A stretch of 64,000 nt of DNA from Bacteroidales bacterium (GTDB lineage: Bacteria > Bacteroidota > Bacteroidia > Bacteroidales > VadinHA17), in contig PLNF01000025.1 of the NCBI GenBank assembly GCA_003141715.1, positions 8,011 to 72,010 of the forward strand, given 5' to 3'. The notes beneath the pieces were generated by a model. The model made no database searches. It worked only from the letters and a program-made list of their open reading frames with translations, and was not told the origin of the DNA. Made by a program: the position numbers and the translations under genes. Positions 25,842 to 64,000 of the stretch are shown here, in pieces; position 1 is the stretch's first letter; each line of letters starts with the position of its first letter.

Positions 25842-26603
25842 TTACTTTACATAGATTTTATGCTTCTGAGAGCCTTTTATTTTTTCTTTTAGCACAAGCC
25901 AAATAAATTTTGAATTTCCAATCAGATAGCGGCGCCACATGCGTCTTGGTTCCTGAAGAAAACGGAAAAACCATTCCATTCCAATACTTTGTATCCAATT
26001 AGGAGCACGTTTTGTAATCCCTGAAAGAATATCAAAATACCCACCTACGCCTAAAATGTATCTGGCATTAAGTTGATTTTTGTATTTTTCGACAAAAAAT
26101 TCTTTCTTAGGAGAAGGCAATCCTAAAAATAAAATATCTGGATTTACATTATTAATCATTTTCACAATTAGCTGCTCTTCATCACTATTATAATATCCGT
26201 TTCGATGACCTGAAAGTATAAGTCCCGGATATGATTTGGCCACTTTCCTAGCAGATAATGTCACACTTTCCTCCTTAGCTCCGAATAAAAAAACCCTATA
26301 ATTATTTTTATCAGCTATTTTTAAAATATCATCTGCTAAATCAGGACATGCAACTCTTTCAGGTACATCAATACCAAGAAATCGCAGCGCCCAAACTACT
26401 GACATTCCATCAATGTTAACCAAATTTGAATTATTGTAGGCCTGGATTAGTGCTTCATTATGAATAAGTTCAAGTATAGATGCTGCATTTATTCCACTTT
26501 GTACAATTTGATTACCTTTCTTTAAATTTGTCAGTACAATATCTAAAAATTCTGCTTTAAGTAAGGGATGAACTTTTATGTTAAAAATCCTAATTTCTTT
26601 CAT
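25842..26603 (-). CDS. WecB/TagA/CpsF-family glycosyltransferase
   Basis: VNIDGMSVVWALRFLG, VFLFGAKEE, ILFLGLPSPKKEFF and GVGGYFDILSG...RAPNWIQSIGMEWFFRFLQEPRRMWRRY. ATG at 26603. Confidence 0.85.
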   Translation of the reverse strand: MKEIRIFNIKVHPLLKAEFLDIVLTNLKKGNQIVQSGINAASILELIHNEALIQAYNNSNLVNIDGMSVVWALRFLGIDVPERVACPDLADDILKIADKNNYRVFLFGAKEESVTLSARKVAKSYPGLILSGHRNGYYNSDEEQLIVKMINNVNPDILFLGLPSPKKEFFVEKYKNQLNARYILGVGGYFDILSGITKRAPNWIQSIGMEWFFRFLQEPRRMWRRYLIGNSKFIWLVLKEKIKGSQKHKIYVK

Positions 26604-26679
26604 AAAGTTGGACAAGACACAAATAGATTATTGAAAATAGTAGCAAAAAAATTAGTCAAATAGTAACTAACTATTTTTC

Positions 26680-27813
26680 TCATTTATCTATCCCATGCCA
26701 TCTATTGCTTAGATATGTATTCCCCATCAATAGTTTTAAAACCCGCCATGAAGAATCACCAATCTGATACTCAGATGGAACTTGTTTAAACCGAATCAGA
26801 TTATGTTCATAAATACTTAACCCAACTGAGTCGAGAACAGCTTGAATTTCAAGACCAGATAAAATAATTGAACCTGTATCCTGGGCTTCGGGCCGTTCCA
26901 TAGATTGTCGTAAAGATATTGCAGCAAAGTCAAGTATCGAGGACTCTTCACTTATAGTACCACTATCAGATATTGTGCATAATGCGTTCTTCTGTAACCA
27001 TATGTAATCCAAAAATCCAAATGGTTTTAGAAAATTAAGTCGATTGTCCATTTTCTTATCAGAAATATTTTCCAGTCTCTTTCGAGTACGTGGATGTGTA
27101 GATATTATTACAGGAATATTGTACTCTGCAGCAAGTTTATTTAACACAATCAATATTTTAGTTAGATTCCCTTTATTATCAACGTTTTCCTCTCTATGAG
27201 TTGAAACCAAGAAATAATTCTGTGGCTGAAGGGACAGCGTTTCCAGTATTTTTGATGTTTTAATAGCCGGCATATAGTAATCCAATACTTCCTTCATAGG
27301 GGATCCTGTGAGATATATCCTGCGGTGAGGGAGTCCTTCTGAAAGCAGATGTCTTCGGGCATGTTCCGTATAAACAAGATTGAAATCGGCAATATGGTCT
27401 ATTATCCGGCGGTTAAGCTCTTCCGGTACATTAAAATCGAAGCTTCGATTGCCAGCTTCCATATGAAAAACAGGTATATGCATCCGTTTTGCAATATATG
27501 CTGAAAGACAGGAGTTAGTGTCACCTAGGACTAATAAAGCATTTGGATGTTCCTGCTTAAGAGTTTCTTCAGTTTTCTTAAATATATCTCCAATTACTGA
27601 ACCAAGGGAACTTGTGTTAACATTCAAAAAATAGTCAGGTTTACGGAGTTCCATCCCATCCCAGAAAATCTCATTCAGTTCGTAATCGTAGTTTTGTCCT
27701 GTGTGAACGATTATATGATTTACATATTCATCCAAAAGTGCCATTGTACGAGACAATCTGATTATTTCGGGACGTGTGCCTACAATTGTCATTACCTTTA
27801 ATAATGCTTTCAT
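26680..27813 (-). CDS. fnlC: UDP-2-acetamido-2,6-dideoxy-L-talose 2-epimerase (non-hydrolysing UDP-GlcNAc 2-epimerase family; FnlC/Cap5G type)
   Basis: VMTIVGTRPEIIRL, HTGQNYD and GDTNS blocks of the 2-epimerase family. Follows FnlA- and FnlB-type genes. Confidence 0.8.
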   Translation of the reverse strand: MKALLKVMTIVGTRPEIIRLSRTMALLDEYVNHIIVHTGQNYDYELNEIFWDGMELRKPDYFLNVNTSSLGSVIGDIFKKTEETLKQEHPNALLVLGDTNSCLSAYIAKRMHIPVFHMEAGNRSFDFNVPEELNRRIIDHIADFNLVYTEHARRHLLSEGLPHRRIYLTGSPMKEVLDYYMPAIKTSKILETLSLQPQNYFLVSTHREENVDNKGNLTKILIVLNKLAAEYNIPVIISTHPRTRKRLENISDKKMDNRLNFLKPFGFLDYIWLQKNALCTISDSGTISEESSILDFAAISLRQSMERPEAQDTGSIILSGLEIQAVLDSVGLSIYEHNLIRFKQVPSEYQIGDSSWRVLKLLMGNTYLSNRWHGIDK

Positions 27814-27909
27814 GTTTTTGCCATATTTACTGAGTTTTACCAAACTTCATTACTATCATATTATGTATTCTTTGGGGAAATTTAATACTTTAACCCCATA
27901 GAATCTGGT

Positions 27910-29034
27910 CTATACCATCTCCATAAAAGTATCAGGATTTTCTGGTCTGTATGGCTCATTAATCCAAAACAGGGTGTATAAAGTATCATCGCCTATATTA
28001 GTAATATTATGAGTATACCAGACAGGCATATCAACATAGGATGGTTGAGAACCATCTAATTCAAAATTTAGCACTTCAGTTGTTCCGATTCTTTTAAGCT
28101 GGATCCTGGCCTTGCCCTTAATCACAATAAAGCGTTCTGCCTTCTGTGTGTGAAAATGATTCCCACGTGTAATACCAGGTTTTGTAGTCGAAAAAGAAAC
28201 CTGCCCTCCGCTATTGAGCTTAATGGTCTCAACAAAGGATCCCCTATTATCCACTTTTTGATTAAGTCTAACCGGAAAATAATTCTTAATATCGATGTAG
28301 GTTATAAATGTATTGAATAAGTCAAGTCCAAATCGGTCATCGAGATTTGGCAAGATTCCGTTTTCGAAATATAAGGATTTATAGTTTTTACACATATCTA
28401 GAATTCCTGACACTTTGATTTCGGTGGTGTTTTTTACTCTGATTAACGATAAAGCATCCTTCGGTTTTTTAATTATTAAATAATATATCTCTTCGATCAA
28501 TTCATTTACATAAATCAATTTCATAAGCCCATCTATTTCAATATGGGGTTCAATTGAATGGGTAAGCTGATAGCAGAATGTTGCAATCACCGAATTATAA
28601 AATGGATTGCCAAAGGGGCCAAAAACATTCGGAATGATCAGTCCTGTGAATTGTGCGTTATTTCTTCTTGCCCATTCTTCCAATAAAATTCTTCCTTCAT
28701 ATTTAGATTTACCATACGGATTATCGTGTTCTTCCTGGGTTGATGAAGAAAAGATTACATGGACTTTGCTCCTTGCCTGTTCAAGAGCGCCAATCAACTT
28801 TTTTACCAGACCTATATTCGTATTGTAAATTATATCAGGATTATTGTGACGGTTCATTGCTGCCAGATGAACAATTGTATCGCAATGACTTACAAAATCC
28901 ATTAATTGTTCTGAATTACTGAAATATTCATCTTTATAAGGGATCATTTGAATTTCCGTTTTTCTCAAATTCAGATAATTATACAGGTGAGTTCCTATAA
29001 AACCAGACTGACCTGTTATTCCGACTCTTAACAT
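27910..29034 (-). CDS. fnlB: FnlB/Cap5F-type reductase (SDR N-domain + cupin-like C-domain)
   Basis: VGITGQSGFIGTHL Rossmann motif, PYGKSK, and a C-terminal cupin block RGNHFHTQKAERFIVIKG. Confidence 0.75.
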   Translation of the reverse strand: MLRVGITGQSGFIGTHLYNYLNLRKTEIQMIPYKDEYFSNSEQLMDFVSHCDTIVHLAAMNRHNNPDIIYNTNIGLVKKLIGALEQARSKVHVIFSSSTQEEHDNPYGKSKYEGRILLEEWARRNNAQFTGLIIPNVFGPFGNPFYNSVIATFCYQLTHSIEPHIEIDGLMKLIYVNELIEEIYYLIIKKPKDALSLIRVKNTTEIKVSGILDMCKNYKSLYFENGILPNLDDRFGLDLFNTFITYIDIKNYFPVRLNQKVDNRGSFVETIKLNSGGQVSFSTTKPGITRGNHFHTQKAERFIVIKGKARIQLKRIGTTEVLNFELDGSQPSYVDMPVWYTHNITNIGDDTLYTLFWINEPYRPENPDTFMEMV

Positions 29035-29122
29035 ATTTAAATTAATATTTCATAATTTTGATGACCAAATAAAGAATTAAAATATTTGAAAATAAAGATA
29101 AATTATGTTCATCTCCCGTAGA

Positions 29123-30139
29123 TTAATGTCCGGCAAAATCCGCAGTAACAAGATCCAATTTAAGTAAGAGCTTTTTCATCCCTTCTATATCCAGTCGTTC
29201 TGTATTATGGGAGGTATAATCATCATACGAATTAACTTCCGGCGTTCCCTGACTGAAGTATTTTGCATAATTTAAATCCCGTGTGTCAGCACTGACACGA
29301 AAATAATTGCCCATGTCTTCTGCCCTTACCATTTCTTCACGGTTTACAAGGGTTTCATACAGTTTTTCACCGTGCCTAGTACCAATAATCTTTATTTCGG
29401 ATTTTGAATTATATAAGTCTTTCAATGCCAGGGCCACTGTTTCTATTGTAGCTGCCGGGGCCTTTTGAACAAAAATATCACCCTGCTTACCATTTTCATA
29501 AGCATATAATACCAGATCGACAGCATCATCAAGAGTCATCATGAAGCGGGTCATACCCGGGTCAGTAATAGTCAGAGGTTTCCCTGATTTAATCTGATCG
29601 ATAAATAATGGAATCACAGAACCTCTTGATGCCATAACATTCCCATAACGTGTACCACAAAGCACGGAATCTGTCATTTTAAGATTCCTTGATTTGGCGA
29701 CCATCACCTTTTCCATCAGAGCTTTTGAAAGGCCCATTGCATTGATCGGATATACTGCTTTATCAGTACTTAGCACAATCACCCGTGCAACTTTATTGGC
29801 TATGGCAGCATCAAGTACATTATTAGCGCCAATGACATTTGTCTTTACTGCTTCCATAGGGAAGAATTCACAGGAAGGAACCTGTTTAAGGGCAGCAGCA
29901 TGAAATACGTAATCGATACCCTTCATACACCCCTGAATACTATTTGGATCCCGTACATCACCAATATAGAATTTTAATTTATCTGATTTAATGGCATTCC
30001 GCATATCATCCTGCTTTTTCTCATCACGACTGAAAATACGGATCTCTTTAATATCAGAGTTGAGGAATCTCTTTAAAACGGCATTCCCGAAAGAACCAGT
30101 ACCACCAGTTATTAATAGGGTTGAATTTGATAATTTCAT
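29123..30139 (-). CDS. fnlA: UDP-GlcNAc 4,6-dehydratase/5-epimerase (FnlA/Cap5E type)
   Basis: LLITGGTGSFGNAVLKRFL, STDKAV and GTRYGNVMASRGSVIP are typical of the CapE/FnlA extended SDRs. Confidence 0.85.
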   Translation of the reverse strand: MKLSNSTLLITGGTGSFGNAVLKRFLNSDIKEIRIFSRDEKKQDDMRNAIKSDKLKFYIGDVRDPNSIQGCMKGIDYVFHAAALKQVPSCEFFPMEAVKTNVIGANNVLDAAIANKVARVIVLSTDKAVYPINAMGLSKALMEKVMVAKSRNLKMTDSVLCGTRYGNVMASRGSVIPLFIDQIKSGKPLTITDPGMTRFMMTLDDAVDLVLYAYENGKQGDIFVQKAPAATIETVALALKDLYNSKSEIKIIGTRHGEKLYETLVNREEMVRAEDMGNYFRVSADTRDLNYAKYFSQGTPEVNSYDDYTSHNTERLDIEGMKKLLLKLDLVTADFAGH

Positions 30140-30241: not shown

Positions 30242-30799
30242 TTACAGAACCGATTTTCCTGCAGAATAATTTAAATTATATAACCGAATATGTTCCTTGA
30301 GGTCATTTTCATTCTCAAATCTGTTCCCAATTCTTTTTGCCGGTACACCTCCTGCAATAGTGTAGGGCTCTATGTCCGCTGTCACCACTGAACCAGCCGC
30401 AATTATACTGCCCTTCCCGATCTTTACACCACTAAGGATAATTGATCCATATCCTACCCATACGTCATCTTCAATAATTACTTTGGAGTCGAGTCCTTTC
30501 CATCTATAACCATTTTGTCTGATTGACGAAGCCAGACGAATCGGAGCTCCAACCTGTTGATAATTATGGTCATATCTGCCAATAAGAGCTACATTGTTGG
30601 CAATTATTACATTATGTCCAATAACTGCATCACATTCAATCTGTGAATATCTGCCAATATAAAAATTATTTCCAATTTCCAGACAGTTTTTTGCCCAAAG
30701 GATTACAGATCTTCCGCAATAAAAATTCTTACCAATACGATATCTTCTCCATAAAATTTTAACAAGAAGTAAAAATCTTATTTTTCTTAACAGATTCAT
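30242..30799 (-). CDS. hexapeptide-repeat (LbH) O-acetyltransferase
   Basis: Repeated [LIV]G-x4 hexapeptides (IGHNVIIANNVALIG, IEDDVWVGYGSIILSGVKIGKGSIIAAGSVV). Confidence 0.8.
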   Translation of the reverse strand: MNLLRKIRFLLLVKILWRRYRIGKNFYCGRSVILWAKNCLEIGNNFYIGRYSQIECDAVIGHNVIIANNVALIGRYDHNYQQVGAPIRLASSIRQNGYRWKGLDSKVIIEDDVWVGYGSIILSGVKIGKGSIIAAGSVVTADIEPYTIAGGVPAKRIGNRFENENDLKEHIRLYNLNYSAGKSVL

Positions 30800-30849
30800 T
30801 ATAAAATAATTATTTAATTTAGGATTAGAAAGTATATCAGTTCTCCTGA

Positions 30850-31947
30850 CTAAATCTCAGTATAATAAATTAATTTATTCATCATTGATTCGACACTATG
30901 ATTTGTAAAAAGAAATGATTCTGCTTTACCTCCCATTTCTTTCCAATCCTGGGGGGATTTTGAGATTATATAACTATGAGCATCATTTAACTCAGTATAA
31001 ATATACCCTGTTTCATCCTTAATTATCAGATCCTTTTCCGCTCCATCAGCCCTACTGCAGATAACAGGTACACCAAATGCCATAGATTGGTTAATAGAGA
31101 GCCCCCCTAATCCCGGCAAAATTGAAAATGAAGCTAGATTATAGTAATGATTCAGCTGTTCCATTTTCTTATATCCTACAAATATATGATTAGTTCCTTC
31201 AAATGTTTGTTCCAATTCAGCTTTGTACTGTGGTGTCCCATCGCCAACAATTATCAGATAATACTTGTCGCCCAGCATTCTTAACAAAGTTGCCATTGAT
31301 TCAATTTTTTTACTCCTGAGCAAAGAGCCGACAAAAATCAGGAAGATGTAATCTCCCTTTGATTGTTCGATAAGTTCCTGAGGAATTGTAGGATCAACCT
31401 CAGATCTTAAATTTCTGATTTTTCTTGTATCAATGGTATTGTTCAGAATAATCAGTTTACTCTCCTCTATTCCAAGGTTTTTAAAATAAACCTGACTCTG
31501 AGAATTATATCCATAAATATATAAAGAGTGTTTCAGGAGAAGTTTATAAATATTCATATAAACTTTTCTGAAGAATGAATTTCCAAAGTTGGCATATTCT
31601 TTACCCAGATCCCAGATTATGTATTTTCGTTTAAAAATCTTACAGTACAGGTATACCTGAAAATTATTAACAGTGTTTTGACCACCCTCTGTCACTATTA
31701 TTCTTGGATTAATACGAATAAGGCTGAAAAATAAAAACGGAAAGATCACATAATTCTCCCCGATAAAAAAGTAAAATATCTTCTCGATAAATGATTTGTT
31801 TTTTGCTTCATCATGTACTTTTACCCGTCCAAGTGAAGAAGTCGAATTGATGAGCTTAAAATCACACTTAATATCAGACAAATAATCGAAAAAACCTTCC
31901 CTGAAATTGTAATAGAATCGCTGTATTATTAATAGCCTTTTCCCCAT
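30850..31947 (-). CDS. glycosyltransferase, GT4-like (GT-B fold)
   Basis: C-terminal GLGGLSINQSMAFGVPVICSRADGAEKDLI block is typical of GT1/GT4 retaining transferases. Confidence 0.7.
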   Translation of the reverse strand: MGKRLLIIQRFYYNFREGFFDYLSDIKCDFKLINSTSSLGRVKVHDEAKNKSFIEKIFYFFIGENYVIFPFLFFSLIRINPRIIVTEGGQNTVNNFQVYLYCKIFKRKYIIWDLGKEYANFGNSFFRKVYMNIYKLLLKHSLYIYGYNSQSQVYFKNLGIEESKLIILNNTIDTRKIRNLRSEVDPTIPQELIEQSKGDYIFLIFVGSLLRSKKIESMATLLRMLGDKYYLIIVGDGTPQYKAELEQTFEGTNHIFVGYKKMEQLNHYYNLASFSILPGLGGLSINQSMAFGVPVICSRADGAEKDLIIKDETGYIYTELNDAHSYIISKSPQDWKEMGGKAESFLFTNHSVESMMNKLIYYTEI

Positions 31948-36291: not shown

Positions 36292-36981
36292 TTATCTGAA
36301 TAATGAATAGTAAAGAAGTTTCCCTCTAAGCTTATTAAAACCAGTGAATTGGAGTTTTCCTTCATTTATCCATCCGACAATGTCAAATTGTTTCATACAT
36401 GCTCTGAACATAAAAACACCATTTTCAACAAAATTATTTATTTTTATACAGCTTTTAGAGTCAGAGTATGAAGTTTTGCTGAAGCAAATTTTTCTCAAAT
36501 AAGGAAGACTATCAAAGTCCTTTAAATGATCCTCCGTAGCATAATCTTTGTCTAATGTGAACTTTACATAAAGGTTATCCCAGTTAATCCTTATTCTTCG
36601 CCGGTTCCATTTTTCTAAAGCTTCTTCTTCCGAGTTGTAATGCAGGAAATGTACCTCAATGTCCAATAACCTACCTATTGGGAATAGCCCTGCACTTTCC
36701 CGTAATTCATTTACCAGTTGATAACTTGATTCAGAAGTAAATTCTAATTTTGCTTCAATATATTTGTGAGGGTTTTTCAGAAATTTCAAATAACAGGGAG
36801 CCATCAACATCAATCCGATAAATGGCGTATTATATGGTAATTGCATCCTTCTGTATAGTTCGCCTCCCCAGCAATCATTTGAAAAAATACAAAAATTTTT
36901 CTGTTTTATGGATAAATGAAAAAACCATTTATTAAATTGATCGAGTGCTATCTGAAGTATCTTTTTAAGAATGCGTATCAT
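36292..36981 (-). CDS. DUF1919-family protein
   Basis: IFSNDCWGGELYRRMQLPYNTPFIGLMLMAPCYLKFLKN matches the DUF1919 N-terminal signature common in EPS loci. Confidence 0.7.
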   Translation of the reverse strand: MIRILKKILQIALDQFNKWFFHLSIKQKNFCIFSNDCWGGELYRRMQLPYNTPFIGLMLMAPCYLKFLKNPHKYIEAKLEFTSESSYQLVNELRESAGLFPIGRLLDIEVHFLHYNSEEEALEKWNRRRIRINWDNLYVKFTLDKDYATEDHLKDFDSLPYLRKICFSKTSYSDSKSCIKINNFVENGVFMFRACMKQFDIVGWINEGKLQFTGFNKLRGKLLYYSLFR

Positions 36982-57350: not shown

Positions 57351-58172
57351 TCAATTATGTTTTTTTTTGGACTTTGAAAATAACCATGAGAATACATCAG
57401 GATCAGTATAAACATTTTTTTCAATATCGTGCCCTCCACCTTTTATGACAGTGAATTTTACTTCACCCCCGCATTTTGCAAGACTATCGGTCATTTCCTG
57501 TGTTTCTTTGTAACTATAGATCGGATCATTTTCTCCACTGAATGCCCAGATGTGGATATCTTTAACAAGATATGCATGAGACGGGTCAGAAGCGGCACAA
57601 ATCGGAATTGCCACTGTAAACAAGTCTGGGTTTCTGAGTATCAATTCCCATAATCCTGTTCCACCCATTGAATGCCCGATTATATAAATACGATCAGTAT
57701 CAATAGAATTTTCGCTTATAATCTTTTTTATTAAATCGCGGACAATTTCAAGAACCGGACTTGACGGTATTGAGTCCAGCGAAAAGTTATTAAAAGGTCT
57801 TTTGGGATTGATAGTCCATATTCTGTCTGAAGGACACTGTGGTATAAGAATAAAAGGAGAGTATTGTTTTCTTAACATTTGGATGAATTTCGCCTTTGTG
57901 TAATCGATATCGCTGATATTATCAGATCCTCTTCCTCCGGCTCCATGAAGTATTACTACCAGTGGTGCTTTTAAATTGTTTGCTGACTTAAATAACCTGT
58001 ACTTTACTGTTATCTCCTTTTTTTTAAACTCACCTTGCTCTGACTGGCTAACAATATGACCTATTCGAATTCTATTTATTCCAGATTTAAAAATAGGTTT
58101 CCCTTTGATTAAGAAATAGCAGCCCAGCACAATAACAATACATAAAATAATATATGAGATTTTAATTTGCAT
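57351..58172 (-). CDS. exported alpha/beta-hydrolase (esterase/lipase-like), signal-anchor or lipoprotein-like N-terminus
   Basis: MQIKISYIILCIVIVLGCY N-terminus. HGAGGRGSDN. Nucleophile elbow IIGHSMGGTG. C-terminal GGGHD. Confidence 0.7.
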   Translation of the reverse strand: MQIKISYIILCIVIVLGCYFLIKGKPIFKSGINRIRIGHIVSQSEQGEFKKKEITVKYRLFKSANNLKAPLVVILHGAGGRGSDNISDIDYTKAKFIQMLRKQYSPFILIPQCPSDRIWTINPKRPFNNFSLDSIPSSPVLEIVRDLIKKIISENSIDTDRIYIIGHSMGGTGLWELILRNPDLFTVAIPICAASDPSHAYLVKDIHIWAFSGENDPIYSYKETQEMTDSLAKCGGEVKFTVIKGGGHDIEKNVYTDPDVFSWLFSKSKKKHN

Positions 58173-58204: not shown

Positions 58205-58588
58205 TTATTTCCTGGAACTTAAAATTTCAATTATTCCATAAGAGACCATTAAAAAAGCAACCTTTCTGTTATTGAATAAAATAGCAAGTTTTGGAGGAGT
58301 AATCAGGATGGCGCCATCCTTTTCAAGTCTATCTAATTCTGCCCCAAAATCATCAACTTCATAACAAAGGTGATAATAACTGATTCTCTTCTTTAATATC
58401 GATTCAACCTGTTTACCTGAGATTAATTCCATTTTTAATCCCTCGTCAATTGTCAGTAAGCATAATTCAGCGTTTTGTTCCTGATCAAAAACAACAGGGC
58501 TCTGATCTAAAATCCTGTGAATTTTAGCTATTTCGGCTATTTCCTCAATAATATTCCGACATGCAATTCCAATGTGGTGAAACCTCAT
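58205..58588 (-). CDS. VOC-family protein (glyoxalase/methylmalonyl-CoA-epimerase-like)
   Basis: MRFHHIGIACRNI N-terminus and a second half-site, HLCYEVDD. 127 aa. Confidence 0.7.
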   Translation of the reverse strand: MRFHHIGIACRNIIEEIAEIAKIHRILDQSPVVFDQEQNAELCLLTIDEGLKMELISGKQVESILKKRISYYHLCYEVDDFGAELDRLEKDGAILITPPKLAILFNNRKVAFLMVSYGIIEILSSRK

Positions 58589-58605: not shown

Positions 58606-58854
58606 TTATAGTAATCTCGATAAAACTGAATTTATAATTTCTCCTGCATTGGTCCAGCTTTGGATCTCTTTTGATGTAAATCTAATTTTATAGTGCTTTT
58701 CTAATGCTACCACAAGATGAATGTGAATTAATGAATCCCAACCCTCCACATCGTTTTGAGTCGTTTTTTCATCTATACGGATTTCTTCATTATCAAGTAA
58801 CTCCACAAAGATTTTATTAAGTTGTTCCAATATATCAATTCTGTTCAAATCCAT
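58606..58854 (-). CDS. discrete acyl carrier protein
   Basis: 82 aa. DVEGWDSLIHIHLV with Ser at 58732-58734. The start overlaps the FkbH 3' end by 20 nt. Confidence 0.75.
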   Translation of the reverse strand: MDLNRIDILEQLNKIFVELLDNEEIRIDEKTTQNDVEGWDSLIHIHLVVALEKHYKIRFTSKEIQSWTNAGEIINSVLSRLL

Positions 58855-60577
58855 TTTCTTTACTATTAATAAAGCACTTCTTATTCTTCAAATCTGTCAC
58901 ATTTAATATCCACAATTTATCTTTCTGTTTAAAGCCAAGATTCAGATAATGATCTTTTACCATCTCATTTTTACCTGTTTTTATGAATTCACCAATTAAA
59001 TTGGTAAAACCTTTTTCCCTGGCGAATTGTCCAATAGTGTTTAATACAAAGTTCTCCACACCCCTGTTAATTACTCTGCAACTCATAAGCCAGGTATCAA
59101 TAAACAAATTGATTTCATCCATTTCTCTAAGAATGATAATGCAAATCAGTCCGTTATCTCCAAACTTATCTTCAAGAGTGAATGAAAAAGAGTAGAATTC
59201 TTTTGAGAGGGAAATCGATTCAATTTCTTTTTCGGTGTATCTAATGGTACGTAAGTTGAATTGATTTGAACGTTGTGTCAATTGTGCAACACGGGGCGCG
59301 TTAAATTTATTAAATGGCAGGACCAGGGACATCATTTTTAAACTCTTTAAAAACTCATCTTCATTTATGAAACTCTTTTTTATTTCTGTACGCAGGGTCT
59401 CAAGCTGATATTGTTTTGTTCTGTCAGTATCTTCATTGGAAATTGAAGCAATTTCAAAAAGATTTAAAGCATACAAATATTCCAGATAATCGGCAGGATC
59501 TTCTGGTAAATCAGGTACAACAATCTCAGGAATGTTTTCCTTAACCAGGTTTCGTTCAGAAGGGTTATCATCCAGGAATACCATCGAATCAAAACCAATG
59601 TTAAGGATACTCTGTATTTGCCTTATATTATGGACTTTATTTTCCCAATTGGCCATAAAGACAGCAAAATCATCAATGTGAAGCACCATCTCAGGATGTT
59701 TTTCAAATGGTTCTTTTGCAACCGACTCTTTGTTTTTACTGCAAACAGCCAGAATTATGCCCCTGTTTTTCAGTTTTTTTATCCAGTATTGAAATTCGGT
59801 AAAAGCTTTCCCAATTCCTAAATTTCCAATTTCAATGTTTTCTATACCATCATCACCAATAATTCCTCCCCAGATGGTATTATCTAAATCGAGAATCAAA
59901 CATTTTTTAAACTTTCCATACAATGCGGAGATGAGCTCAAGATTCCGGGAAGCAATATATGGCAGAATGTCAATACTTAGAACTATCTCAGAGTTGATAT
60001 ATATAGAGGGTTGGAACATGGTGGATTTACCTGCCTGATTTTGAATTGATGAAATATCGCAGAGATAGAAATCAGTGTGTTTGCTGGCGTATTGCATCAC
60101 TTCATAATTCAGCTTACGCAGTTGAAATAAAAAAGATGAATCAGTTTTGTTGGCAAAGTTGCCAAATACAGAATCATTTACTTCAGGGTAGTTATAAAAA
60201 ATAATTTTAGTTTTAAGGTCTCTAATTAATGCCTGATATATATTATCAATCAACTTTAACTGGTTATCAGCTAATGTATTGTATTGCTTAATCTCAAGTT
60301 TATTAAATTTATTTAATAGTTTGTGGGTAGACTGAAAAATAATAACAACTTCAGGATTAAACTTATATAATTCAGATGCAGTATCAAAAACCTGACGTTC
60401 AATCTGGTCAAAATCCGCTTCAAAAATTATCAGATCAAATCCAAAATCGAAACCTGTTCCTCGCAATGCCTGCACAAGAAACTGAGTTGCAGTATCTCCC
60501 AGAACAGCCATTCTGACAGATTTCAAATTTGTGAAATCACATTTTAAATTCTTCTTTAATTGCAAAAAAGACTTCAT
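58835..60577 (-). CDS. stand-alone FkbH-like protein (HAD-IIIC family)
   Basis: LILDLDNTIWGG (DLDNT at 59876-59890). MSCRVINRGVENF (Cys at 59078-59080). I prefer the ATG at 60577: the track's 60727 start would overlap the upstream NRPS by 89 nt. Confidence 0.85.
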   Translation of the reverse strand: MKSFLQLKKNLKCDFTNLKSVRMAVLGDTATQFLVQALRGTGFDFGFDLIIFEADFDQIERQVFDTASELYKFNPEVVIIFQSTHKLLNKFNKLEIKQYNTLADNQLKLIDNIYQALIRDLKTKIIFYNYPEVNDSVFGNFANKTDSSFLFQLRKLNYEVMQYASKHTDFYLCDISSIQNQAGKSTMFQPSIYINSEIVLSIDILPYIASRNLELISALYGKFKKCLILDLDNTIWGGIIGDDGIENIEIGNLGIGKAFTEFQYWIKKLKNRGIILAVCSKNKESVAKEPFEKHPEMVLHIDDFAVFMANWENKVHNIRQIQSILNIGFDSMVFLDDNPSERNLVKENIPEIVVPDLPEDPADYLEYLYALNLFEIASISNEDTDRTKQYQLETLRTEIKKSFINEDEFLKSLKMMSLVLPFNKFNAPRVAQLTQRSNQFNLRTIRYTEKEIESISLSKEFYSFSFTLEDKFGDNGLICIIILREMDEINLFIDTWLMSCRVINRGVENFVLNTIGQFAREKGFTNLIGEFIKTGKNEMVKDHYLNLGFKQKDKLWILNVTDLKNKKCFINSKENGFEQN

Positions 60578-60638
60578 ATAAATATGCAAAAAGATAATTT
60601 GATCTCCTCTCTGACAATCCTTAACAACATTTGTCTCT

Positions 60639-63600
60639 TTAAATTTCTCCTTCAATAATTTTAGGATTTGACAGAGTTGTTTTATTTGCAGAAATATTTT
60701 TGACTTTATTCTGACGTGCAATATCAATTGCCTCAGCTAAATCCTTTATTCTTGGACTATCAAAGAAAACTCTTAATCCCCACTCAAGATTAAATGCAGA
60801 TTCTATCTTTGAAAAGACTGATATAGCTAAAAGAGAATTTCCTCCTATTTCAAAGAAATTATCTGTTATTGATATTTCTTCAGTCTTTAGAGCTTCACTC
60901 CAGAATTTATGAATTATATTTTCTGTAGGTGTAAGAGTTTTACTTTCAACAATTTTCCTGAATTCCGGCTCTTTTACATCAAAAATACGTGATTTCCTGT
61001 CAATTTTCCCGTTAATAGTTTTAGGGAACCCGTGCATGAATTTGTATGCTGATGGCACCATATAAGAAGGCAATTTTGCTTTTATAAGTCTGCCAATTTC
61101 TTTTGGATCCATATAAGATGATTCCGGAACATTCAAAAAAGCTACCAGCATATAATCTCCAACTTCAACTTTTGCGGGCTTGACTACTGTTTCTATAATA
61201 CCATCTATCTCTGAGATGACTGATTCAATCTCCTCCAACTCAACCCTGAATCCTCTTATTTTAAATTGATTATCAACCCTGCCATGAAATTCGATGTTTC
61301 CGTCCGGTAACCACTTAGCGCGATCACCTGTCCTGTAGAGTCTTTCTGCAGGATTATGAGGATTAGCTATATAACTAGTTTTATTTAAATCTTCTCTGTT
61401 CAAATATCCCATTGAAAGACCATCGCCTCCAACGTATAACTCCCCGATAACTCCTATCGGCTGATAATTCATGTTACTATCAAAAATATAGGCAGTGGAA
61501 TTGCTTACTGGTTTGCCAATTGGAATGTTATTCTCAAAATCTCGGTCAATCAAATAGGTTGTTGAAAATGTTGTATTCTCTGTAGGTCCGTAGCCGTTTA
61601 TAACTTTCAGCTTTGGATTATCTTTCCGCACCCTATTTATGTGAGAGGTTGACAGAACGTCCCCTCCTACAAGCAAATACTTTAGTTTGCTGAATATATC
61701 TGCGTGTGACTCTGAAATCTGCGTGAATAACGATGATGACAACCAAAGAATGGTAATATTATTCTTATGAAGTTCTTCACCCAGGGTTTTCGGATCGAGA
61801 ATAGTCTCCTTCTCTTCAAGATACAGGGTACCTCCGTTCAACAGAGCACCCCATATTTCAAAAGTTGTTGCATCAAATACTATTGCCCCTGTAAGGAGTA
61901 TTCTATCGGCCGATGTAATTTCAATATAGTTTGTATTCCGAACAAGTCTGACTACACCGTACTGAGGTATCAAACTCCCCTTGGGAACTCCTGTAGTCCC
62001 TGACGTGTACATGATATAGGCAAGATCTGAAGACTTGTTTCTCGTCTTAGGGTTTGATTTTTCTTCAGCATAAGAACCAGGATTGTTCAGGTTTAATCTA
62101 GTAACATTATCTAAATATATGCTCATGCTTTTGTCCTGAACGAGGAGTACTTTACATCCTGAGTCCTTAATAATGAAATTGATTCTCATTGAAGGGTAAT
62201 CTGGATCAATGGGCACATAAACTCCGCCTGCTTTTAGAATACCAAGGATCCCCACTATCACAGCTAAAGACTTTTCTGCCAGAATTCCCACAGGTGTATT
62301 TCTTCCGACTCCAATCTTAATTAGATTATTGGCTAATTGATTTGCTTTATAATTTAATTGTTTATAGGTCAATGATTCTTCTTTAAAAACCAAGGCTGTT
62401 TTATCCGGATAAATAGAAACCTGCTCTTCGAATAACTGGATAATTGTTTTATCTTTTGGATAGTCAATATGAGTATTGTTAAAACCATCGATCTTTACTT
62501 TCTCCTCATCAGTAATTAAAGGAAGCGATTCAAGAGCAGCATCAGATTTTTCAACCAGATTATTTACTAAACTCAAGAAGTTGTTCCTAAACTGGAGTAT
62601 AGTTTCATGTTTCAATAAATCGGTAGAATATTCAATCTCACCTTCAATTATTCCTTCACTTTCCCAGAGATATATTGTAATATCAAATGGAGTAGTTCTA
62701 AGTTTTTCAGATACCTTAATGCTTCTGATACAGTCCAGCTTCAATGGAACGTTCAGATTATTCTGCCAGACAAAACCTATCTGAAATATTGGATTAACGC
62801 TGGGAAAACGTTCCGGATTCACAATTTCCACGATAGTTTCAAACGGGAGTTCCTTATGAGCTATTGCATTTAAAGCAACTTGATCAGTTTGGTGAATTAG
62901 TTTTCTAAATGTAAGCTCTTTGTTGAATTTAAGCCGTACAACTATCGTATTGACAAACATTCCAAAAACATTCTCAAGTTTTGAATGAGAACGGGAAGCC
63001 ACCGGTAATCCAATGTTAATATCAACTTCGCCTGAATATTTATGTATCTGAATCCCAAATGTGCTCAACATTGTGGAAAACAGTGAAATACCCTCTTCCT
63101 TACTTATTTCTCTGAGTTTATCTGATAATTCCTGTGAAAATCTAATGACTTCGTAACCACCTTTTCCTGTCGGCTGACTCCTTCGTTGAAAATCATATGG
63201 AAAATTAAGAATCGGGGACGCCTCTTTTAAATTGTCTTTCCAGAATTCAATTAATTCATTCTCAACACTAAAATTTGAATAGCTATTTTCCCAATGAGCA
63301 TAATCATATTGTTGAAATTCAACTTTTTCCAGATCGATCTCTTTCCTTTCTAACAAATTGTTATAGATTTTATTAAGATCCTTAACAAATACACCCCATG
63401 ACCAACCATCAAAAATTATATGATGAATACTAAAATGGAAATAATATTCATTGATACTAGTCATAATAAGGTACAAACGATACAATGGACCATTTCTCAG
63501 ATCGAAGGCCTTTTCAGAATCTGCATTAAGGATCTCATTTACTTTCTTTTCTTTCTCATTTTCTGGCAGTCCTGAATAATCAATAAATTCAAGATTAACT

Positions 63601-64000
63601 TCTGATAGAACTATATCACAATAAGGTTCTCCATCAATTTCCTTAATTACAGAAAATACGATGTGATGCCGCTGGAATAAAATCTCCAAACTCTTTTTAA
63701 ATACTTCACGATCAAGATAACCAACAAGATGATAAGTAAACGAGATAATGTATGACGGTATAGCAGGCTGTAATTTTGAAATAACCCATAACCTTTTCTG
63801 ATTTTTTGTAAGGGGTAAATTCGTTGTTTCAGTCAAATGGATCAATTCAATTGCTTTTTCTGAGCTTCCGGCTCGATTTTCAATTAAGACACTTAATTGT
63901 TTTATTGTAGAATTAGCAATTAATGCTCCAAAGGTCAAAGAAAATCCAAGCTCTTCCCTTATTTTATTAATGAGTCTGATTGCCAATAACGAATTGGCTC
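60639..64000 (-). CDS. NRPS, partial: ...T-C-A-T (5' end beyond right window edge; A code DAFWLGGTFK, Val-like)
   Basis: The frame stays open to the window edge and reads ...ANSLLAIRLINKI (a T-domain motif). C: LPLTKNQKRLW and HHIIFDGWS. A: YTSGTTGVPKG, FDAT, NGYGPTENT, PKTINGKIDR. T: FFEIGGNSLLAI (Ser at 60834-60836). Confidence 0.95.
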   Translation of the reverse strand, partial: ANSLLAIRLINKIREELGFSLTFGALIANSTIKQLSVLIENRAGSSEKAIELIHLTETTNLPLTKNQKRLWVISKLQPAIPSYIISFTYHLVGYLDREVFKKSLEILFQRHHIVFSVIKEIDGEPYCDIVLSEVNLEFIDYSGLPENEKEKKVNEILNADSEKAFDLRNGPLYRLYLIMTSINEYYFHFSIHHIIFDGWSWGVFVKDLNKIYNNLLERKEIDLEKVEFQQYDYAHWENSYSNFSVENELIEFWKDNLKEASPILNFPYDFQRRSQPTGKGGYEVIRFSQELSDKLREISKEEGISLFSTMLSTFGIQIHKYSGEVDINIGLPVASRSHSKLENVFGMFVNTIVVRLKFNKELTFRKLIHQTDQVALNAIAHKELPFETIVEIVNPERFPSVNPIFQIGFVWQNNLNVPLKLDCIRSIKVSEKLRTTPFDITIYLWESEGIIEGEIEYSTDLLKHETILQFRNNFLSLVNNLVEKSDAALESLPLITDEEKVKIDGFNNTHIDYPKDKTIIQLFEEQVSIYPDKTALVFKEESLTYKQLNYKANQLANNLIKIGVGRNTPVGILAEKSLAVIVGILGILKAGGVYVPIDPDYPSMRINFIIKDSGCKVLLVQDKSMSIYLDNVTRLNLNNPGSYAEEKSNPKTRNKSSDLAYIMYTSGTTGVPKGSLIPQYGVVRLVRNTNYIEITSADRILLTGAIVFDATTFEIWGALLNGGTLYLEEKETILDPKTLGEELHKNNITILWLSSSLFTQISESHADIFSKLKYLLVGGDVLSTSHINRVRKDNPKLKVINGYGPTENTTFSTTYLIDRDFENNIPIGKPVSNSTAYIFDSNMNYQPIGVIGELYVGGDGLSMGYLNREDLNKTSYIANPHNPAERLYRTGDRAKWLPDGNIEFHGRVDNQFKIRGFRVELEEIESVISEIDGIIETVVKPAKVEVGDYMLVAFLNVPESSYMDPKEIGRLIKAKLPSYMVPSAYKFMHGFPKTINGKIDRKSRIFDVKEPEFRKIVESKTLTPTENIIHKFWSEALKTEEISITDNFFEIGGNSLLAISVFSKIESAFNLEWGLRVFFDSPRIKDLAEAIDIARQNKVKNISANKTTLSNPKIIEGEI

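Follow-up and report, generated by a model that had tools for sequence, protein, structure and literature searches.

The window, i.e. the whole 64,000-nucleotide stretch of Bacteroidales DNA analyzed here, contains an NRPS-PKS assembly line that runs directly into the genes of a Wzx/Wzy-type glycan locus. From the right edge of the window downwards, the first part of this array consists of the following features.

60639-64000, minus strand: 3' part of NRPS1, a T1 tail followed by C-A-T (Pfam)
58835-60577, minus strand: free-standing FkbH, glyceryl-carrier loading enzyme, 580 aa (FkbH_N, 4e-72; exact gene call)
58606-58854, minus strand: free-standing carrier protein (ACP), 82 aa (ORF and sequence; called as a gene on four contigs)
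58205-58588, minus strand: glyoxalase/VOC-fold protein, 127 aa (Glyoxalase_4, 8e-13)
57351-58172, minus strand: alpha/beta hydrolase, DLH/esterase-like, 273 aa (several alpha/beta-hydrolase Pfam families)
56065-57300, minus strand: methyltransferase-ACP (MT-ACP) didomain, 411 aa (Pfam)
46202-56068, minus strand: hybrid megasynthase, 3288 aa, C / FkbH-like HAD core / T / KS / AT / T / C / A / T (domain search)
42957-46175, minus strand: NRPS module C-A-T, 1072 aa (Pfam)
42585-42956, no strand: AT-rich spacer of 372 nt, the only long gap of the array
41658-42584, minus strand: free-standing thioesterase (TE) with N-terminal TubC-type docking domain, 308 aa (TubC_N and Thioesterase)
40872-41645, minus strand: Sfp-type 4'-phosphopantetheinyl transferase (PPTase), 257 aa (ACPS and AASDHPPT_N)
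39327-40865, minus strand: Wzx-type flippase of the MOP superfamily, 512 aa (weak MatE match; many hydrophobic segments)

The glycan genes follow without a change of strand; the last two entries lie outside the array.

38330-39319, minus strand: nitroreductase-family protein (Pfam)
37052-38278, minus strand: polysaccharide pyruvyl transferase (PS_pyruv_trans, 7e-31)
36292-36981, minus strand: DUF1919 protein (Pfam)
35078-36271, minus strand: candidate Wzy polymerase, polytopic, 397 aa (no Pfam match; TM segments)
34006-35097, minus strand: GT4-family glycosyltransferase (Pfam)
33077-33997, minus strand: GT2-family glycosyltransferase (Pfam)
32017-33006, minus strand: CE4-fold, polysaccharide-deacetylase-like protein, 329 aa (weak PF01522 match; model)
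30850-31947, minus strand: GT1 glycosyltransferase (Glycos_transf_1; Pfam)
30242-30799, minus strand: hexapeptide-repeat acetyltransferase, 185 aa (Pfam)
26680-30139, minus strand: FnlA, FnlB and FnlC-type enzymes of the UDP-L-FucNAc pathway (Polysacc_synt_2 and Polysacc_syn_2C; Epimerase and Polysacc_synt_C; Epimerase_2)
25842-26615, minus strand: WecG/TagA-family glycosyltransferase, final gene of the array (Glyco_tran_WecG, 1e-57)
22634-25796, plus strand: export pair Wza (OPX) and Wzc (PCP tyrosine-kinase type), convergent with the array
7374-8825, plus strand: WbaP-like phosphoglycosyl transferase (Bac_transf; five TM-like segments)

According to the ORF list and Pfam, all family-supported ORFs of at least 100 aa between 25842 and 64000 lie on the minus strand; the few ORFs of this interval that read the other way are nested within larger genes and lack family support. 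The sequence-only reading had placed every gene from 25842 to the right edge on the minus strand, and this is borne out. Its gene order is that of the Pfam assignments listed above, apart from the domains of the megasynthase, the CE4-like deacetylase gene, which had been omitted, and the length of the array, which is greater than proposed. Re-measurement of the junction spacers returned the same values (TE-PPTase 12 nt, PPTase-wzx 6 nt, wzx-nitroreductase 7 nt), and the 372-nt spacer is indeed the only one in the array longer than 102 nt. No terminator-like hairpin is present in any intergenic spacer of the array; the 372-nt spacer contains neither such a hairpin nor a TAnnTTTG motif, and the Bacteroidetes-type -7 motif is absent both there and at the PPTase-wzx junction. 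At the position of this spacer, relatives possess a T9SS-CTD protein cassette or a Fib_succ_major protein, and a search of the spacer for the cassette or a Fib_succ_major remnant found none.

On the source contig the array extends ~6 kb past the window, to a co-directional total of ~44 kb. The complete NRPS1 (2119 aa, C-A-T-C-A-T; gene call on its own contig, L081/L177) crosses the window edge to about window-equivalent position 66998. Upstream of it, on the same strand, lie a 48-aa ORF, a polytopic membrane protein of 506 aa with ~13 TM segments, and an ArnC/DPMS-like GT2, and the order on the contig is GT2 (ArnC-like) / 13-TM protein / NRPS ... wzx ... tagA. The NRPS is embedded among glycan-type genes, which flank it on both sides.

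Within the assembly line, the A-domain codes of NRPS1 suggest approximately Ser (A1) and Val (A2, DAFWLGGTFK), and its C motifs are HHIIIDL and HHIIFDG. The free-standing FkbH carries the DxDxT HAD motif at residue 230 and is 35% identical to the FkbH-like HAD core of the megasynthase. Its stop is overlapped by 20 nt by the 82-aa ACP, which shares 30% identity with the 79-aa ACP of the related locus L173. The MT-ACP didomain, probably a loading unit, overlaps the start of the megasynthase by 4 nt, and in the relative L007 it is fused to the next C domain. The megasynthase shows the KS motifs TACS, HGTGT and NIGH, AT motifs of malonyl type (GHSIG, HAFH) and a Gly-like A code (DMFQLGCV.K); KR, DH and ER domains are absent from its 3288 aa. 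For the 1072-aa C-A-T module the A code is again DAFWLGGTFK (~Val), with an HHIIFDG motif, and its C-terminus ...KIVTGEL resembles those of NRPS1 and the megasynthase; all three synthetases share near-identical terminal ...GE[IL] tails, and the array contains two possible starter carriers. A lipo-initiation starter role of the first C domain is disfavoured, since this domain is closer to ordinary elongation C domains, and the lipopeptide part of the glycosylated lipopeptide proposed earlier is thus not indicated. In the docking-domain TE, Ser138 of GxSxG, Asp165 and His278 are invariant across 28 homologues. Its closest solved structures are the TE domains of NRPSs, Pks13 and EntF, and, judged by its sequence, it would pass for an ordinary type I TE.

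In the glycan block, the nitroreductase slot before the pyruvyl transferase is occupied by FrhB-like proteins in relatives. The GT2 at 33077-33997 is a conserved core gene of NRPS-linked loci, with orthologues of 46-60% identity in L001, L002, L086, L168, L171, L175 and L176; GT1 has orthologues of 59-82% identity in L003, L171 and L175. The deacetylase-like protein is predicted to adopt a CE4-like fold in a confident AlphaFold model (pLDDT 88.7), for which Foldseek returns CE4 deacetylases including ArnD (TM ~0.5). D12, E14, H86, H88, R142 and H296 are invariant in this protein, and orthologues occur in L003, L085, L166, L168 and L171. The hexapeptide transferase resembles acetyl-CoA enzymes; an assignment to the PglD type was rejected, the closest solved structures being of DapH, Vat, CatB and LacA type instead. 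The WbaP-like protein may be an initiating enzyme, but its gene is 17 kb away from the array.

The arrangement NRPS/PKS-(TE)-PPTase-Wzx-glycan is conserved in at least 12 distinct loci of uncultured Bacteroidota, and in nearly all related loci the next gene after the Sfp-type PPTase encodes a Wzx. A synteny check found the TE-PPTase-wzx junction conserved in many divergent genomes. Among loci with a TE at least 50% identical to that of the window (observed 52-58%) and enough downstream sequence, TE-PPTase is directly followed by Wzx in eight out of eight (L001, L002, L003, L085, L086, L166, L168, L176). Conversely, when six Wzx homologues were selected without reference to the TE list, five of them proved to adjoin NRPS/PKS genes (L171, L173, L174, L175, L176). 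At least 31 of the 68 TE matches on contigs of at least 4 kb share the exact contig size with one of the best 120 Wzx matches. As a baseline, no Wzx match occurs among ~62 distant loci that are anchored on a TE and span at least 15 kb; two of these loci have a weak Wzc match. Hence, the adjacency of NRPS and glycan genes is not due to chance.

Because all relatives are uncultured Bacteroidota, part of the synteny could be inherited and not selected. One explanation along these lines is that the locus specifies two independent products, a free NRPS-PKS metabolite and an ordinary capsule or O-antigen, and that their proximity reflects a tendency of the NRPS-TE-PPTase cassette to be located at, or to insert into, the 5' end of polysaccharide operons, with a promoter or antitermination system perhaps shared there, or that the layout was inherited in one lineage. 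Each block on its own looks complete, the glycan block as a Wzx/Wzy set and the NRPS block as a line including TE and PPTase, and the blocks are also found apart: L172 has glycan genes only, while L169/L170 and L008 have only the NRPS side. The more distant TE-PPTase pairs of L005 and L169/L170 are without glycan genes, and L008 possesses an NRPS-TE and no Wzx. Furthermore, no enzyme joining peptide and sugar was identified in the window, and the long single-strand polysaccharide operons of Bacteroidales often collect accessory genes. We nevertheless consider two separate products rather unlikely. The junction is kept although pairwise identity among the Wzx proteins of NRPS-linked loci is only 50-75%, which indicates loci from different taxa, and although the glycan genes behind it vary among loci like serotypes. 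It is kept even where a non-homologous Wzx has taken over, i.e. in two or three loci: L168 and L007 contain in the same slot a Wzx without detectable similarity to that of the window, and L090, with a match to the L007-type Wzx (46%) on its short stretch after the PPTase, may be a third case. In nine of 11 relatives PPTase and wzx overlap or are at most 25 nt apart (~155 nt in the other two). TE-PPTase still accompanies wzx in L168, which has no NRPS within 10 kb upstream, and in L006 the TE homologue follows glycan-acylation genes (GT1-MBOAT-SGNH-TE). The position of the NRPS between glycan-type genes and the lack of such an association in distant NRPS TE neighbourhoods point in the same direction. 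The earlier view of the two blocks as a unit thus finds support in the conserved junction, the short or overlapping PPTase-wzx spacing, the swapped glycan genes, and the lack of terminator-like hairpins in the spacers and of a -7 motif at the junction; the co-transcription and the two alternative products proposed with it, a decorated glycan or an exported glycolipopeptide, are hypothetical.

As to the nature of a joint product, a deacetylase, MBOATs of the DltB type and proteins of type IX secretion (T9SS) are recurrent in related loci. A CE4 or YdjC deacetylase is present in nine of 12 NRPS-linked loci and is fused to Wzx in L085; L001 has a DltB-like MBOAT (PDB 6bug, 1e-27) and a partner protein between TE and PPTase, and in L173 and L174 an MBOAT is accompanied by an ACP and by two AMP-binding genes. 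With L006, these loci make glycan modification by carrier-protein chemistry a repeated theme of the family. The most constant NRPS partners are Wzx, one or two GT2s, GT1 and the deacetylase, while Wzy, pyruvyl transferase and sugar-nucleotide genes are variable or undetected in L001-L003, L085 and L166. Such a set could also make a glycosylated small molecule: the TE-released NRPS-PKS product would be glycosylated by the GT2, a second GT2 and GT1, the deacetylase would trim GlcNAc, and the MOP-family 'Wzx' would act as exporter, leaving Wzy, Fnl, pyruvyl transferase and Wza/Wzc to a separate adjacent capsule pathway. Glycosyltransferase and deacetylase act together on a non-lipid aglycone in bacillithiol and mycothiol synthesis (BshA/BshB, MshA/MshB), and the window GT1 weakly matches BshA and GlcN-PG-synthase. 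Glycerate hydroxyls would be natural sites for glycosylation, and the only Pfam match of the Wzx is the weak one to MatE. A small molecule of this kind is unlikely in our view. JGI names the homologues of the window Wzx O-antigen/teichoic acid export proteins. The closest homologue outside NRPS-linked loci, from Marinifilum (L172; 54% identity), is the sole flippase of a canonical, NRPS-free Wzx/Wzy locus, and by identity it is no outgroup to the NRPS-linked Wzx proteins; the window flippase is therefore not obviously specialised. In addition, orthologues of the Wzy candidate (45-68% identity) are present in L171 and L173-L176, and the unit has Wzc/Wza as immediate neighbours in the window, in L006, with the same convergent TE | Wzc-Wza | T9SS-protein arrangement, and in L007, where the NRPS comes right after Wzc (order wzc / NRPS / PPTase / wzx ... 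wecA-like). The WecA-like initiating transferase at the end of L007 implies a polyprenyl-linked glycan, and the DltB-type MBOATs of the relatives point to extracytoplasmic polymer acylation.

Dlt-type carrier-protein acylation of glycopolymers is a conceptual precedent for a joint product. The nearest one is the Wzx/Wzy O-antigen locus of Flavobacterium psychrophilum, from the same phylum, which contains fnl genes as well as an O-PS-specific ACP, KAS and KR, with a predicted ACP-made N-acyl group on an amino sugar (PMC6519341). PKS genes of the WcbR/RkpA type occur in capsule loci (PMC3908369). We found no description in the literature of a modular NRPS-PKS version of a carrier-acylated Wzx/Wzy glycan. 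The sequence-only reading, which knew of no described pathway with this layout, therefore holds for the modular NRPS-PKS but overlooked the Flavobacterium, WcbR/RkpA and Dlt precedents.

We hypothesize that the array works as a single biosynthetic unit that makes a surface glycoconjugate, in which a Wzx/Wzy/Wza-Wzc polysaccharide, with L-FucNAc, a ManNAc-type sugar and pyruvate ketals as its predicted constituents, would be combined with a short glycerate-containing peptide-polyketide assembled on carrier proteins. The Sfp-type PPTase would prime the eight carrier domains, and, judging from their family, the free-standing FkbH and the FkbH-like domain of the megasynthase would load glyceryl units. 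NRPS1, MT-ACP, megasynthase and C-A-T module, perhaps in this order, would assemble a chain of ~Ser, Val, one or two glycerates, one malonyl-derived beta-keto C2, Gly and Val. The docking-domain TE with its intact Ser-Asp-His triad may then off-load the chain not onto water but onto a sugar nucleophile of the lipid-linked glycan, most likely an amine that the CE4 or YdjC deacetylase conserved alongside would have freed, by a logic like that of NodB/NodA, LpxC/LpxD and ArnD. As a variant, the upstream pair of ArnC-like GT2 and 13-TM protein could be responsible both for making a decorated polyprenyl-phosphate sugar and for its transfer at the outer face of the membrane. Finally, Wzx would flip the decorated unit, Wzy polymerise it, and Wzc/Wza export the polymer. 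Our preferred reading of the product, a Wzx/Wzy polysaccharide that bears a glycerate-peptide-polyketide built on carrier proteins as decoration or cap, has, in our estimate, about an even chance of being right, with gene neighbourhood providing all of its links. More generally, the recurrence of the junction in many related uncultured genomes suggests that assembly line and glycan cluster probably make one undescribed sugar-peptide surface molecule.

Every supported gene from 25842 to the right edge of the window lies on the minus strand, just as the sequence-only reading had it, and Pfam agrees with the genes which that reading listed. The spacers it quoted are exact, with 12 nt between the docking-domain thioesterase (TE, 41658-42584) and the PPTase (40872-41645), 6 nt between PPTase and wzx (39327-40865) and 7 nt between wzx and the nitroreductase gene, and the array contains a single long gap of 372 nt at 42585-42956. 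Four amendments are needed. A CE4-like deacetylase gene (32017-33006) had been omitted; the first NRPS (NRPS1) is in full a 2119-aa C-A-T-C-A-T synthetase extending beyond the window; the megasynthase contains an embedded FkbH-like part, described below; and the Wza and Wzc genes converge on the array from the plus strand. If the genes of the same contig beyond the right edge are counted, the co-directional array comes to about 44 kb. The G+C content of the window is about 33%. The neighbouring genes that matter for the interpretation are these:

Upstream of NRPS1 on the window's own contig, same strand as NRPS1: a 48-aa ORF (gene call).
Within L177:779-3447 (L177 is the window's own contig; window-equivalent about 67131-69799), same strand as NRPS1: a 506-aa protein with about 13 hydrophobic or TM segments.
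Within the same interval, L177:779-3447 (window-equivalent about 67131-69799), same strand: a GT2 of 351 aa with two C-terminal TM segments, ArnC/DPMS/GtrB-like.
22634-25796, plus strand, convergent with the array: Wza (Poly_export and SLBB) and Wzc (GNVR and P-loop kinase domain).
7374-8825, strand opposite to the array: a WbaP-like gene.

To the left of Wza and Wzc, 15491-18721 (minus strand) encodes three proteins: one that is DUF2334/deacetylase-like, one of 288 aa without a Pfam match, and a methyltransferase. In a homologous locus, L008, in a MAG labelled Bacteroides fragilis, the C-A-T-TE synthetase gene is directly followed by one for a methyltransferase (L008:10805-11668) with 40% identity to the 288-aa protein. 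The stretch 4367-11824, between T9SS genes and the glycan region, is occupied by mobile and defence-like genes, including those for a SiaC-family protein, an IS200-like transposase (5293-5808), a Fic protein (8887-10005) and two nucleotidyltransferases (10395-10709 and 11115-11432), the second directly followed by a HEPN gene (11435-11824).

No minus-strand terminator-like hairpins were found in the intergenic spacers of the array. Counts of sigma-70-type promoters and of terminators equal those of shuffled sequence or fall within about two standard deviations of them, and are uninformative for Bacteroidota. Across the 1241 nt that separate the genes, the -7 motif of Bacteroidetes, TAnnTTTG, has a single occurrence, which precedes the Wzy candidate (35078-36271); it is found neither at the PPTase-wzx junction nor in the 372-nt spacer. 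These signal scans are consistent with co-transcription of the array, without proving it.

In total, the assembly line comprises four A domains, two FkbH units, one KS-AT, the docking-domain TE and an Sfp-type PPTase (ACPS and AASDHPPT_N); the carriers in the strand-continuous array of wzx are an 82-aa ACP, an MT-ACP and six T domains. The megasynthase, at 3288 aa, reads C / FkbH-like HAD core / T / KS / AT / T / C / A / T. Pfam identifies the C, A, T, KS and AT domains, whose catalytic motifs are intact: the catalytic His is kept in all five C domains (HHIIIDL, HHIIFDG, HHITCDA, QHMVFDG, HHIIFDG), the KS retains the TACS Cys, HGTGT and NIGH, and the AT motifs GHSIG and HAFH are of the malonyl type. 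The NRPS/PKS genes of the window encode no KR, DH, ER or E domain. A-domain codes were read against a GrsA-PheA segment, with an alignment that reproduces DAWTIAAIC; they are approximately DVWHFSLV.K (Ser-like), DAFWLGGTFK (Val-like, twice) and DMFQLGCV.K (Gly-like), and the substrate calls are approximate as well.

The start of the line was considered with respect to the lipopeptide product that the sequence-only reading had offered as one possibility. The best PDB relatives of the first C domain of NRPS1 are elongation-type C domains (Txo1/Txo2, TycC), and these score far higher than the RzmA-type starter C, which speaks against the domain being a lipo-initiation starter. Because it resembles elongation domains, a lipo-initiated lipopeptide is not indicated. 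Two proteins are candidate starter carriers, the 82-aa ACP and the MT-ACP; in the related locus L007 the latter forms one protein with the C domain that follows it, and would for this reason be a loading unit. The free-standing FkbH protein (FkbH_N, 4e-72; HAD motif DxDxT as DLDNT) is followed by the 82-aa ACP. Its embedded counterpart, at about residues 650-1100 of the megasynthase in a C-FkbH-T module, carries DxDxT as DCDNT and is 35% identical to the free-standing protein over 325 residues, with no FkbH_N match in Pfam. Judged by its family, FkbH is a predicted glyceryl loader acting on a carrier; to our knowledge, no characterised assembly line has two glyceryl-loading units.

The three synthetases end in near-identical C-termini, ...KIIEGEI in NRPS1 (60639-60662), ...KLVIGEI in the megasynthase (46202-46225) and ...KIVTGEL in the C-A-T protein (42957-42980), which are probably docking peptides for the TubC-type docking domain of the TE. 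If all three tails dock there, docking alone leaves the order of the subunits unfixed. By sequence the TE is an ordinary type I enzyme, whose Ser138-Asp165-His278 triad is invariant in 28 homologues and whose nearest solved relatives are the TE domains of NRPSs, Pks13 and EntF; the likeness to the Pks13 TE, which covers about 100 residues at E about 1e-12, is that of a generic fold. It has more than 240 homologues, nearly all from uncultured Bacteroidota. In two homologous loci, at L174:349-6494 and L169:3634-10004, the NRPS/PKS genes are split into several short ORFs, either pseudogenes or frameshift errors; one of the two comes from a contig-named assembly that is possibly long-read based.

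That this assembly line is fused head-to-tail with a Wzx/Wzy glycan locus was the central claim of the earlier reading, and the synteny search upholds it: the TE-PPTase-wzx junction is conserved in divergent loci of uncultured Bacteroidota. For a TE-anchored test, window proteins were mapped onto homologous loci (those with L numbers), some taken from a collection of genomes and others reached by looking up exact proteins. The order NRPS/PKS, TE, PPTase, Wzx recurs in L001, L002, L003, L085, L086, L166 and L176, and the order TE, PPTase, Wzx in L168; PPTase is followed by Wzx in all eight loci that have a TE 52-58% identical to that of the window and enough downstream sequence. PPTase and wzx overlap or lie no more than 25 nt apart in 9 of 11 relatives. 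A Wzx-anchored test used six Wzx homologues picked independently of the TE list, and NRPS/PKS genes adjoin five of them (L171, L173, L174, L175, L176). The exception, L172 from Marinifilum, with the lowest of the best 120 Wzx matches listed (54% identical), is an ordinary NRPS-free Wzx/Wzy locus that begins with a NusG-like gene. By a same-contig proxy, at least 31 of the 68 TE matches on contigs of at least 4 kb share the exact longest-contig size with one of the best 120 Wzx matches.

Of the 80 loci from the scan of genome contigs, about 8 are close relatives and the others provide a baseline; among the matches listed for metagenome contigs, L086 and L090 are close loci and the others reflect general TE motifs. 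In the baseline of about 62 distant TE loci (at least 15 kb, other phyla, TE at most 36% identical), there is no Wzx match, and a weak Wzc match occurs in two. The Wzx proteins of the related loci are 50-75% identical to one another. In L168 and L007, the gene after PPTase encodes a Wzx of the PF01943 type without detectable similarity to that of the window, and in L090 the little sequence that remains beyond PPTase gives a 46% match to the L007-type Wzx. Wzx identity, tried as a marker of NRPS linkage, fails to separate NRPS-linked from NRPS-free loci.

At TE identities of 38-45% the association is weaker. TE and PPTase occur without glycan genes in L169/L170 and L005, and L008 combines NRPS-TE with a methyltransferase and a GT2, without Wzx; in L006 and L007 the NRPS or TE is still surrounded by Wzc/Wza or by an entire Wzx/Wzy locus. 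TE-PPTase-Wzx heads a glycan operon in L168 (1-13157), with no NRPS within 10 kb upstream; genes for T9SS CHU_C, PorP, OmpA, a 2-epimerase and a Fib_succ_major protein are found there instead, and the synthetase may lie elsewhere on the 158-kb contig. At the level of sequence, the coupling of the NRPS and glycan blocks is well supported by synteny, and to this extent the earlier proposal that the two blocks may cooperate is partly supported. The loci that lack glycan genes, on the one hand, and the conserved junction, on the other, bear on a reading in which the blocks make two independent products and are adjacent through operon architecture or ancestry; we consider it somewhat unlikely.

Behind the junction lie candidate genes of a Wzx/Wzy-dependent polysaccharide locus. 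The Wzx protein (512 aa, many hydrophobic segments) matches Pfam weakly (MatE, 8.5e-4), its homologues are named O-antigen/teichoic acid export proteins, and the 54% identical homologue is the sole flippase of the canonical locus L172. The Wzy candidate is a 397-aa polytopic protein without a Pfam or NCBIfam match, whose orthologues occupy the same position in related loci. The window also has the Wza/Wzc-type (OPX/PCP) export pair. Another alternative is that a small glycosylated metabolite is exported by the MOP protein; the weak MatE match speaks for it, the flippase homologue in L172, the polymerase candidate and the export pair against it, and we regard it as unlikely. There is no initiating phosphoglycosyl transferase within the array; the WbaP-like gene at 7374-8825 lies outside it. 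The TagA/WecG enzyme implies a GlcNAc-primed lipid supplied by a WecA-type enzyme; none was seen in the window, and a WecA-like gene stands at the end of the L007 locus.

The glycan genes behind Wzx differ between loci in a serotype-like manner. The order in L171 is almost that of the window, with genes 55-92% identical for nitroreductase, pyruvyl transferase, Wzy candidate, GT4, GT2, deacetylase, GT1, acetyltransferase, FnlA and FnlB. Elsewhere the sets differ and include Ugd, YdjC, FrhB together with a pyruvyl transferase, GH88-like proteins, GFO/ADH fusions, AsnB, DUF354, and a GHMP kinase with a nucleotidyl transferase. A GT2 orthologous to 33077-33997 is a recurrent partner of the NRPS (46-60% identical in seven loci), as are a second GT2 and a GT1.

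The deacetylase at 32017-33006 is matched weakly by PF01522 and has nothing significant in a PDB sequence search. A confident AlphaFold model based on 41 homologues (pLDDT 88.7, pTM 0.90) finds CE4 deacetylases in Foldseek at TM about 0.5, among them a mycobacterial polysaccharide deacetylase, ArnD and HP0310, and D12, E14, H86, H88, R142 and H296 are invariant. Model and residues are compatible with a metal-dependent deacetylase, a predicted activity. A sugar deacetylase, CE4 or YdjC, is present in 9 of 12 NRPS-linked loci. L085:11719-14139, in a 4.38-Mb MAG, encodes an 806-aa fusion of Wzx with a YdjC-type deacetylase, which hints at a deacetylase working at the membrane, on the substrate of the flippase.

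The hexapeptide transferase (30242-30799) is closest to acetyltransferases of the DapH, Vat, CatB and LacA type and, not being PglD-like, is a weak candidate for a chain-transfer enzyme. Some relatives possess additional acylation genes: in L001 (11335-13859), a DltB-like MBOAT (PDB 6bug, 1e-27) and a partner protein lie between TE and PPTase; L006 (1028-3465) has the order GT1-MBOAT-SGNH-TE; and two AMP-binding genes, a 79-aa ACP and an MBOAT are found at L173:15520-21275 and L174:15519-20604. The DltB-like MBOATs of the relatives are paired with SGNH/DltD-like partners. With these sets, the locus family would have another way of acylating glycans by means of carrier proteins. The window contains neither a DltB MBOAT nor a DltD-like partner.

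Starting from gene content, intact motifs and conserved linkage, which are observed directly, we propose, as the reading with the best support, a single pathway in which a glycerate-peptide-polyketide built on carrier proteins becomes part of a Wzx/Wzy polysaccharide, and we rate its chances as even. Judging from protein families, FkbH would load the glyceryl units, FnlABC would make L-FucNAc, the glycan would be pyruvylated, and the product would be flipped by Wzx, polymerised by Wzy and exported by Wzc/Wza. For the joining step we favour aminolysis catalysed by the TE, with a sugar amine that the deacetylase would expose, in a conjectural step that would follow the logic of NodB/NodA, LpxC/LpxD and ArnD. 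The Pks13 TE, which off-loads its chain onto a sugar hydroxyl, is a precedent for TE transfer to a sugar.

An alternative route would involve the genes upstream of NRPS1. The closest solved structures of the 351-aa GT2 are dolichol-P-mannose synthase (PDB 5mlz, 1.6e-19) and then ArnC entries (about 1e-12); its 506-aa neighbour has nothing significant in a PDB sequence search and no Pfam match beyond a weak Glyco_transf_22 (0.004). The two may constitute a GT2/GT-C periplasmic glycosylation system. On this route, the ArnC-like GT2 and the 13-TM protein would make a decorated polyprenyl-phosphate sugar, and transfer would take place outside the cytoplasm.

T9SS genes cluster around these loci, and the T9SS markers of the window show that its organism belongs to Bacteroidota. 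In the relatives, the interval from NRPS to TE/PPTase/Wzx holds one of two conserved cassettes, either a T9SS C-terminal-domain protein with a partner or a Fib_succ_major protein. The T9SS cassette consists of a 162-aa Por_Secre_tail protein and a partner of 540-726 aa, and is placed between NRPS and TE or PPTase in four relatives; its proteins are 67-70% identical across the three loci compared. The positions are as follows:

L001:7210-9885: T9SS cassette.
L166:7557-9676: T9SS cassette.
L173:6585-8690: T9SS cassette.
L174:6686-8785: T9SS cassette.
Window 1504-2505: PorP/SprF, which with a PD40/OmpA-like protein spans 1504-4374 at the left end.
Window 11939-15205 and 20633-22423, beside Wza/Wzc: Por_Secre_tail (T9SS C-terminal-domain) proteins.

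The PorP/SprF and PD40/OmpA-like pair also lies upstream of TE-PPTase-wzx in L168. The 372-nt spacer was considered as a decayed cassette, and neither the T9SS nor the Fib_succ_major type was found in it. In the A-LPS of Porphyromonas, a seryl linking sugar supplies the amine for anchoring T9SS cargo. More speculatively, and by analogy, such an amine might come from the peptide arm, given that proteins with a T9SS C-terminal domain are found repeatedly within and next to these loci.

In a full-text library that lacks most subscription journals, no paper was found that describes a Wzx/Wzy locus containing a modular NRPS-PKS, nor any publication on the locus family. A genome-mining survey of Bacteroidetes mentions no saccharide-linked NRPS (PMC9248904), and a paper on 28 loci of B. 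fragilis mentions no NRPS, PKS or carrier protein (PMC3090145). The sequence-only reading, which knew of no described pathway with this layout, is right as far as modular NRPS-PKS systems go, but an ACP-dependent analogue exists in the O-antigen of Flavobacterium psychrophilum. Its Wzx/Wzy locus (wfpC-wfpG) encodes an ACP specific to the O-PS along with two KAS, one KR and a transferase resembling PglD, and the 3,5-dihydroxyhexanoyl group that they are predicted to make would be placed on the Qui2NAc4N of the repeat unit (PMC6519341). This closest documented system shares with the window the phylum, Wzx/Wzy dependence, fnl genes for L-FucNAc, and a carrier and ketosynthases encoded in the locus. 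However, its FAS-like enzymes are separate type II proteins, and its PglD-like acyltransferase uses a UDP-4-amino sugar as substrate, whereas the line described here is multi-modular and of type I; the window contains the deacetylase, and a search of it for a PglE/F-type aminotransferase or dehydratase found none. Because type II enzymes, a PglD-like transferase and PglE/F are absent, the locus would at most work like the F. psychrophilum system and is not a member of it.

Other systems resemble the locus in part. D-alanylation by DltABCD likewise uses an adenylating enzyme and a carrier protein to supply an aminoacyl group for a surface glycopolymer; it handles a single amino acid, in contrast to a multi-residue peptide-polyketide on a carrier, and in the window transfer would need a pre-flipping step or another route. 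The wcb/rkp capsule systems are dependent on ABC transporters, and the proposed product of their PKS is a lipid moiety. The window, with export genes of the Wzx/Wzy/Wza/Wzc type, yielded none of the KpsM/T type. The type I PKS genes of those Burkholderia and Sinorhizobium clusters encode WcbR/RkpA (PMC3908369), single-module, PKS/FAS-like proteins of Proteobacteria, unlike the hybrid NRPS-PKS without reducing domains found here in a Wzx/Wzy system. With the Arn pathway (ArnC, ArnD, ArnE/F, ArnT) the locus has in common an ArnC/DPMS-like GT2, an adjoining polytopic protein and a CE4 model matching ArnD, among others; for the 506-aa protein, sequence searches gave no match that would place it in the pathway. 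The logic shared with Arn and NodB/NodA would be that a sugar, possibly lipid-linked as in Arn, is de-N-acylated and its free amine then used; we know of no precedent in the Arn/Nod pathways for N-acylation by an NRPS TE. Mycobacterial glycopeptidolipids, finally, also join NRPS/PKS products to sugars in the cell envelope; these small lipids receive their sugars once released, and MmpL proteins export them, without Wzx, Wzy or Wza/Wzc.

We see the locus as a case of carrier-protein-dependent decoration of surface glycans, a known principle, on an unusual scale. Its family is apparently both undescribed and common in uncultured Bacteroidota from several metagenomic sources. Genome-mining tools would probably divide such a locus into an NRPS cluster and a saccharide cluster, and the docking-TE/PPTase pair beside wzx could serve as a marker for finding a culturable carrier. 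Going further, we tentatively propose, as a possibility about which we remain doubtful, a widespread uncharacterised class of Bacteroidales surface glycoconjugates, in which the TE would transfer an NRPS-PKS-made glycerate-peptide-polyketide to a de-N-acetylated lipid-linked sugar before flipping. If both blocks contribute to a single product, a modular NRPS-PKS would deliver its chemistry straight to a Wzx/Wzy polysaccharide pathway, and the TE, or another enzyme of the locus, would be revealed as coupling a chain on a carrier protein to a sugar on a lipid. Such a substituent or cap would be the first that an assembly line makes for a Wzx/Wzy polysaccharide, and the chemistry of capsules and O-antigens would reach well past the known acetyl, pyruvyl, aminoacyl and short acyl groups.
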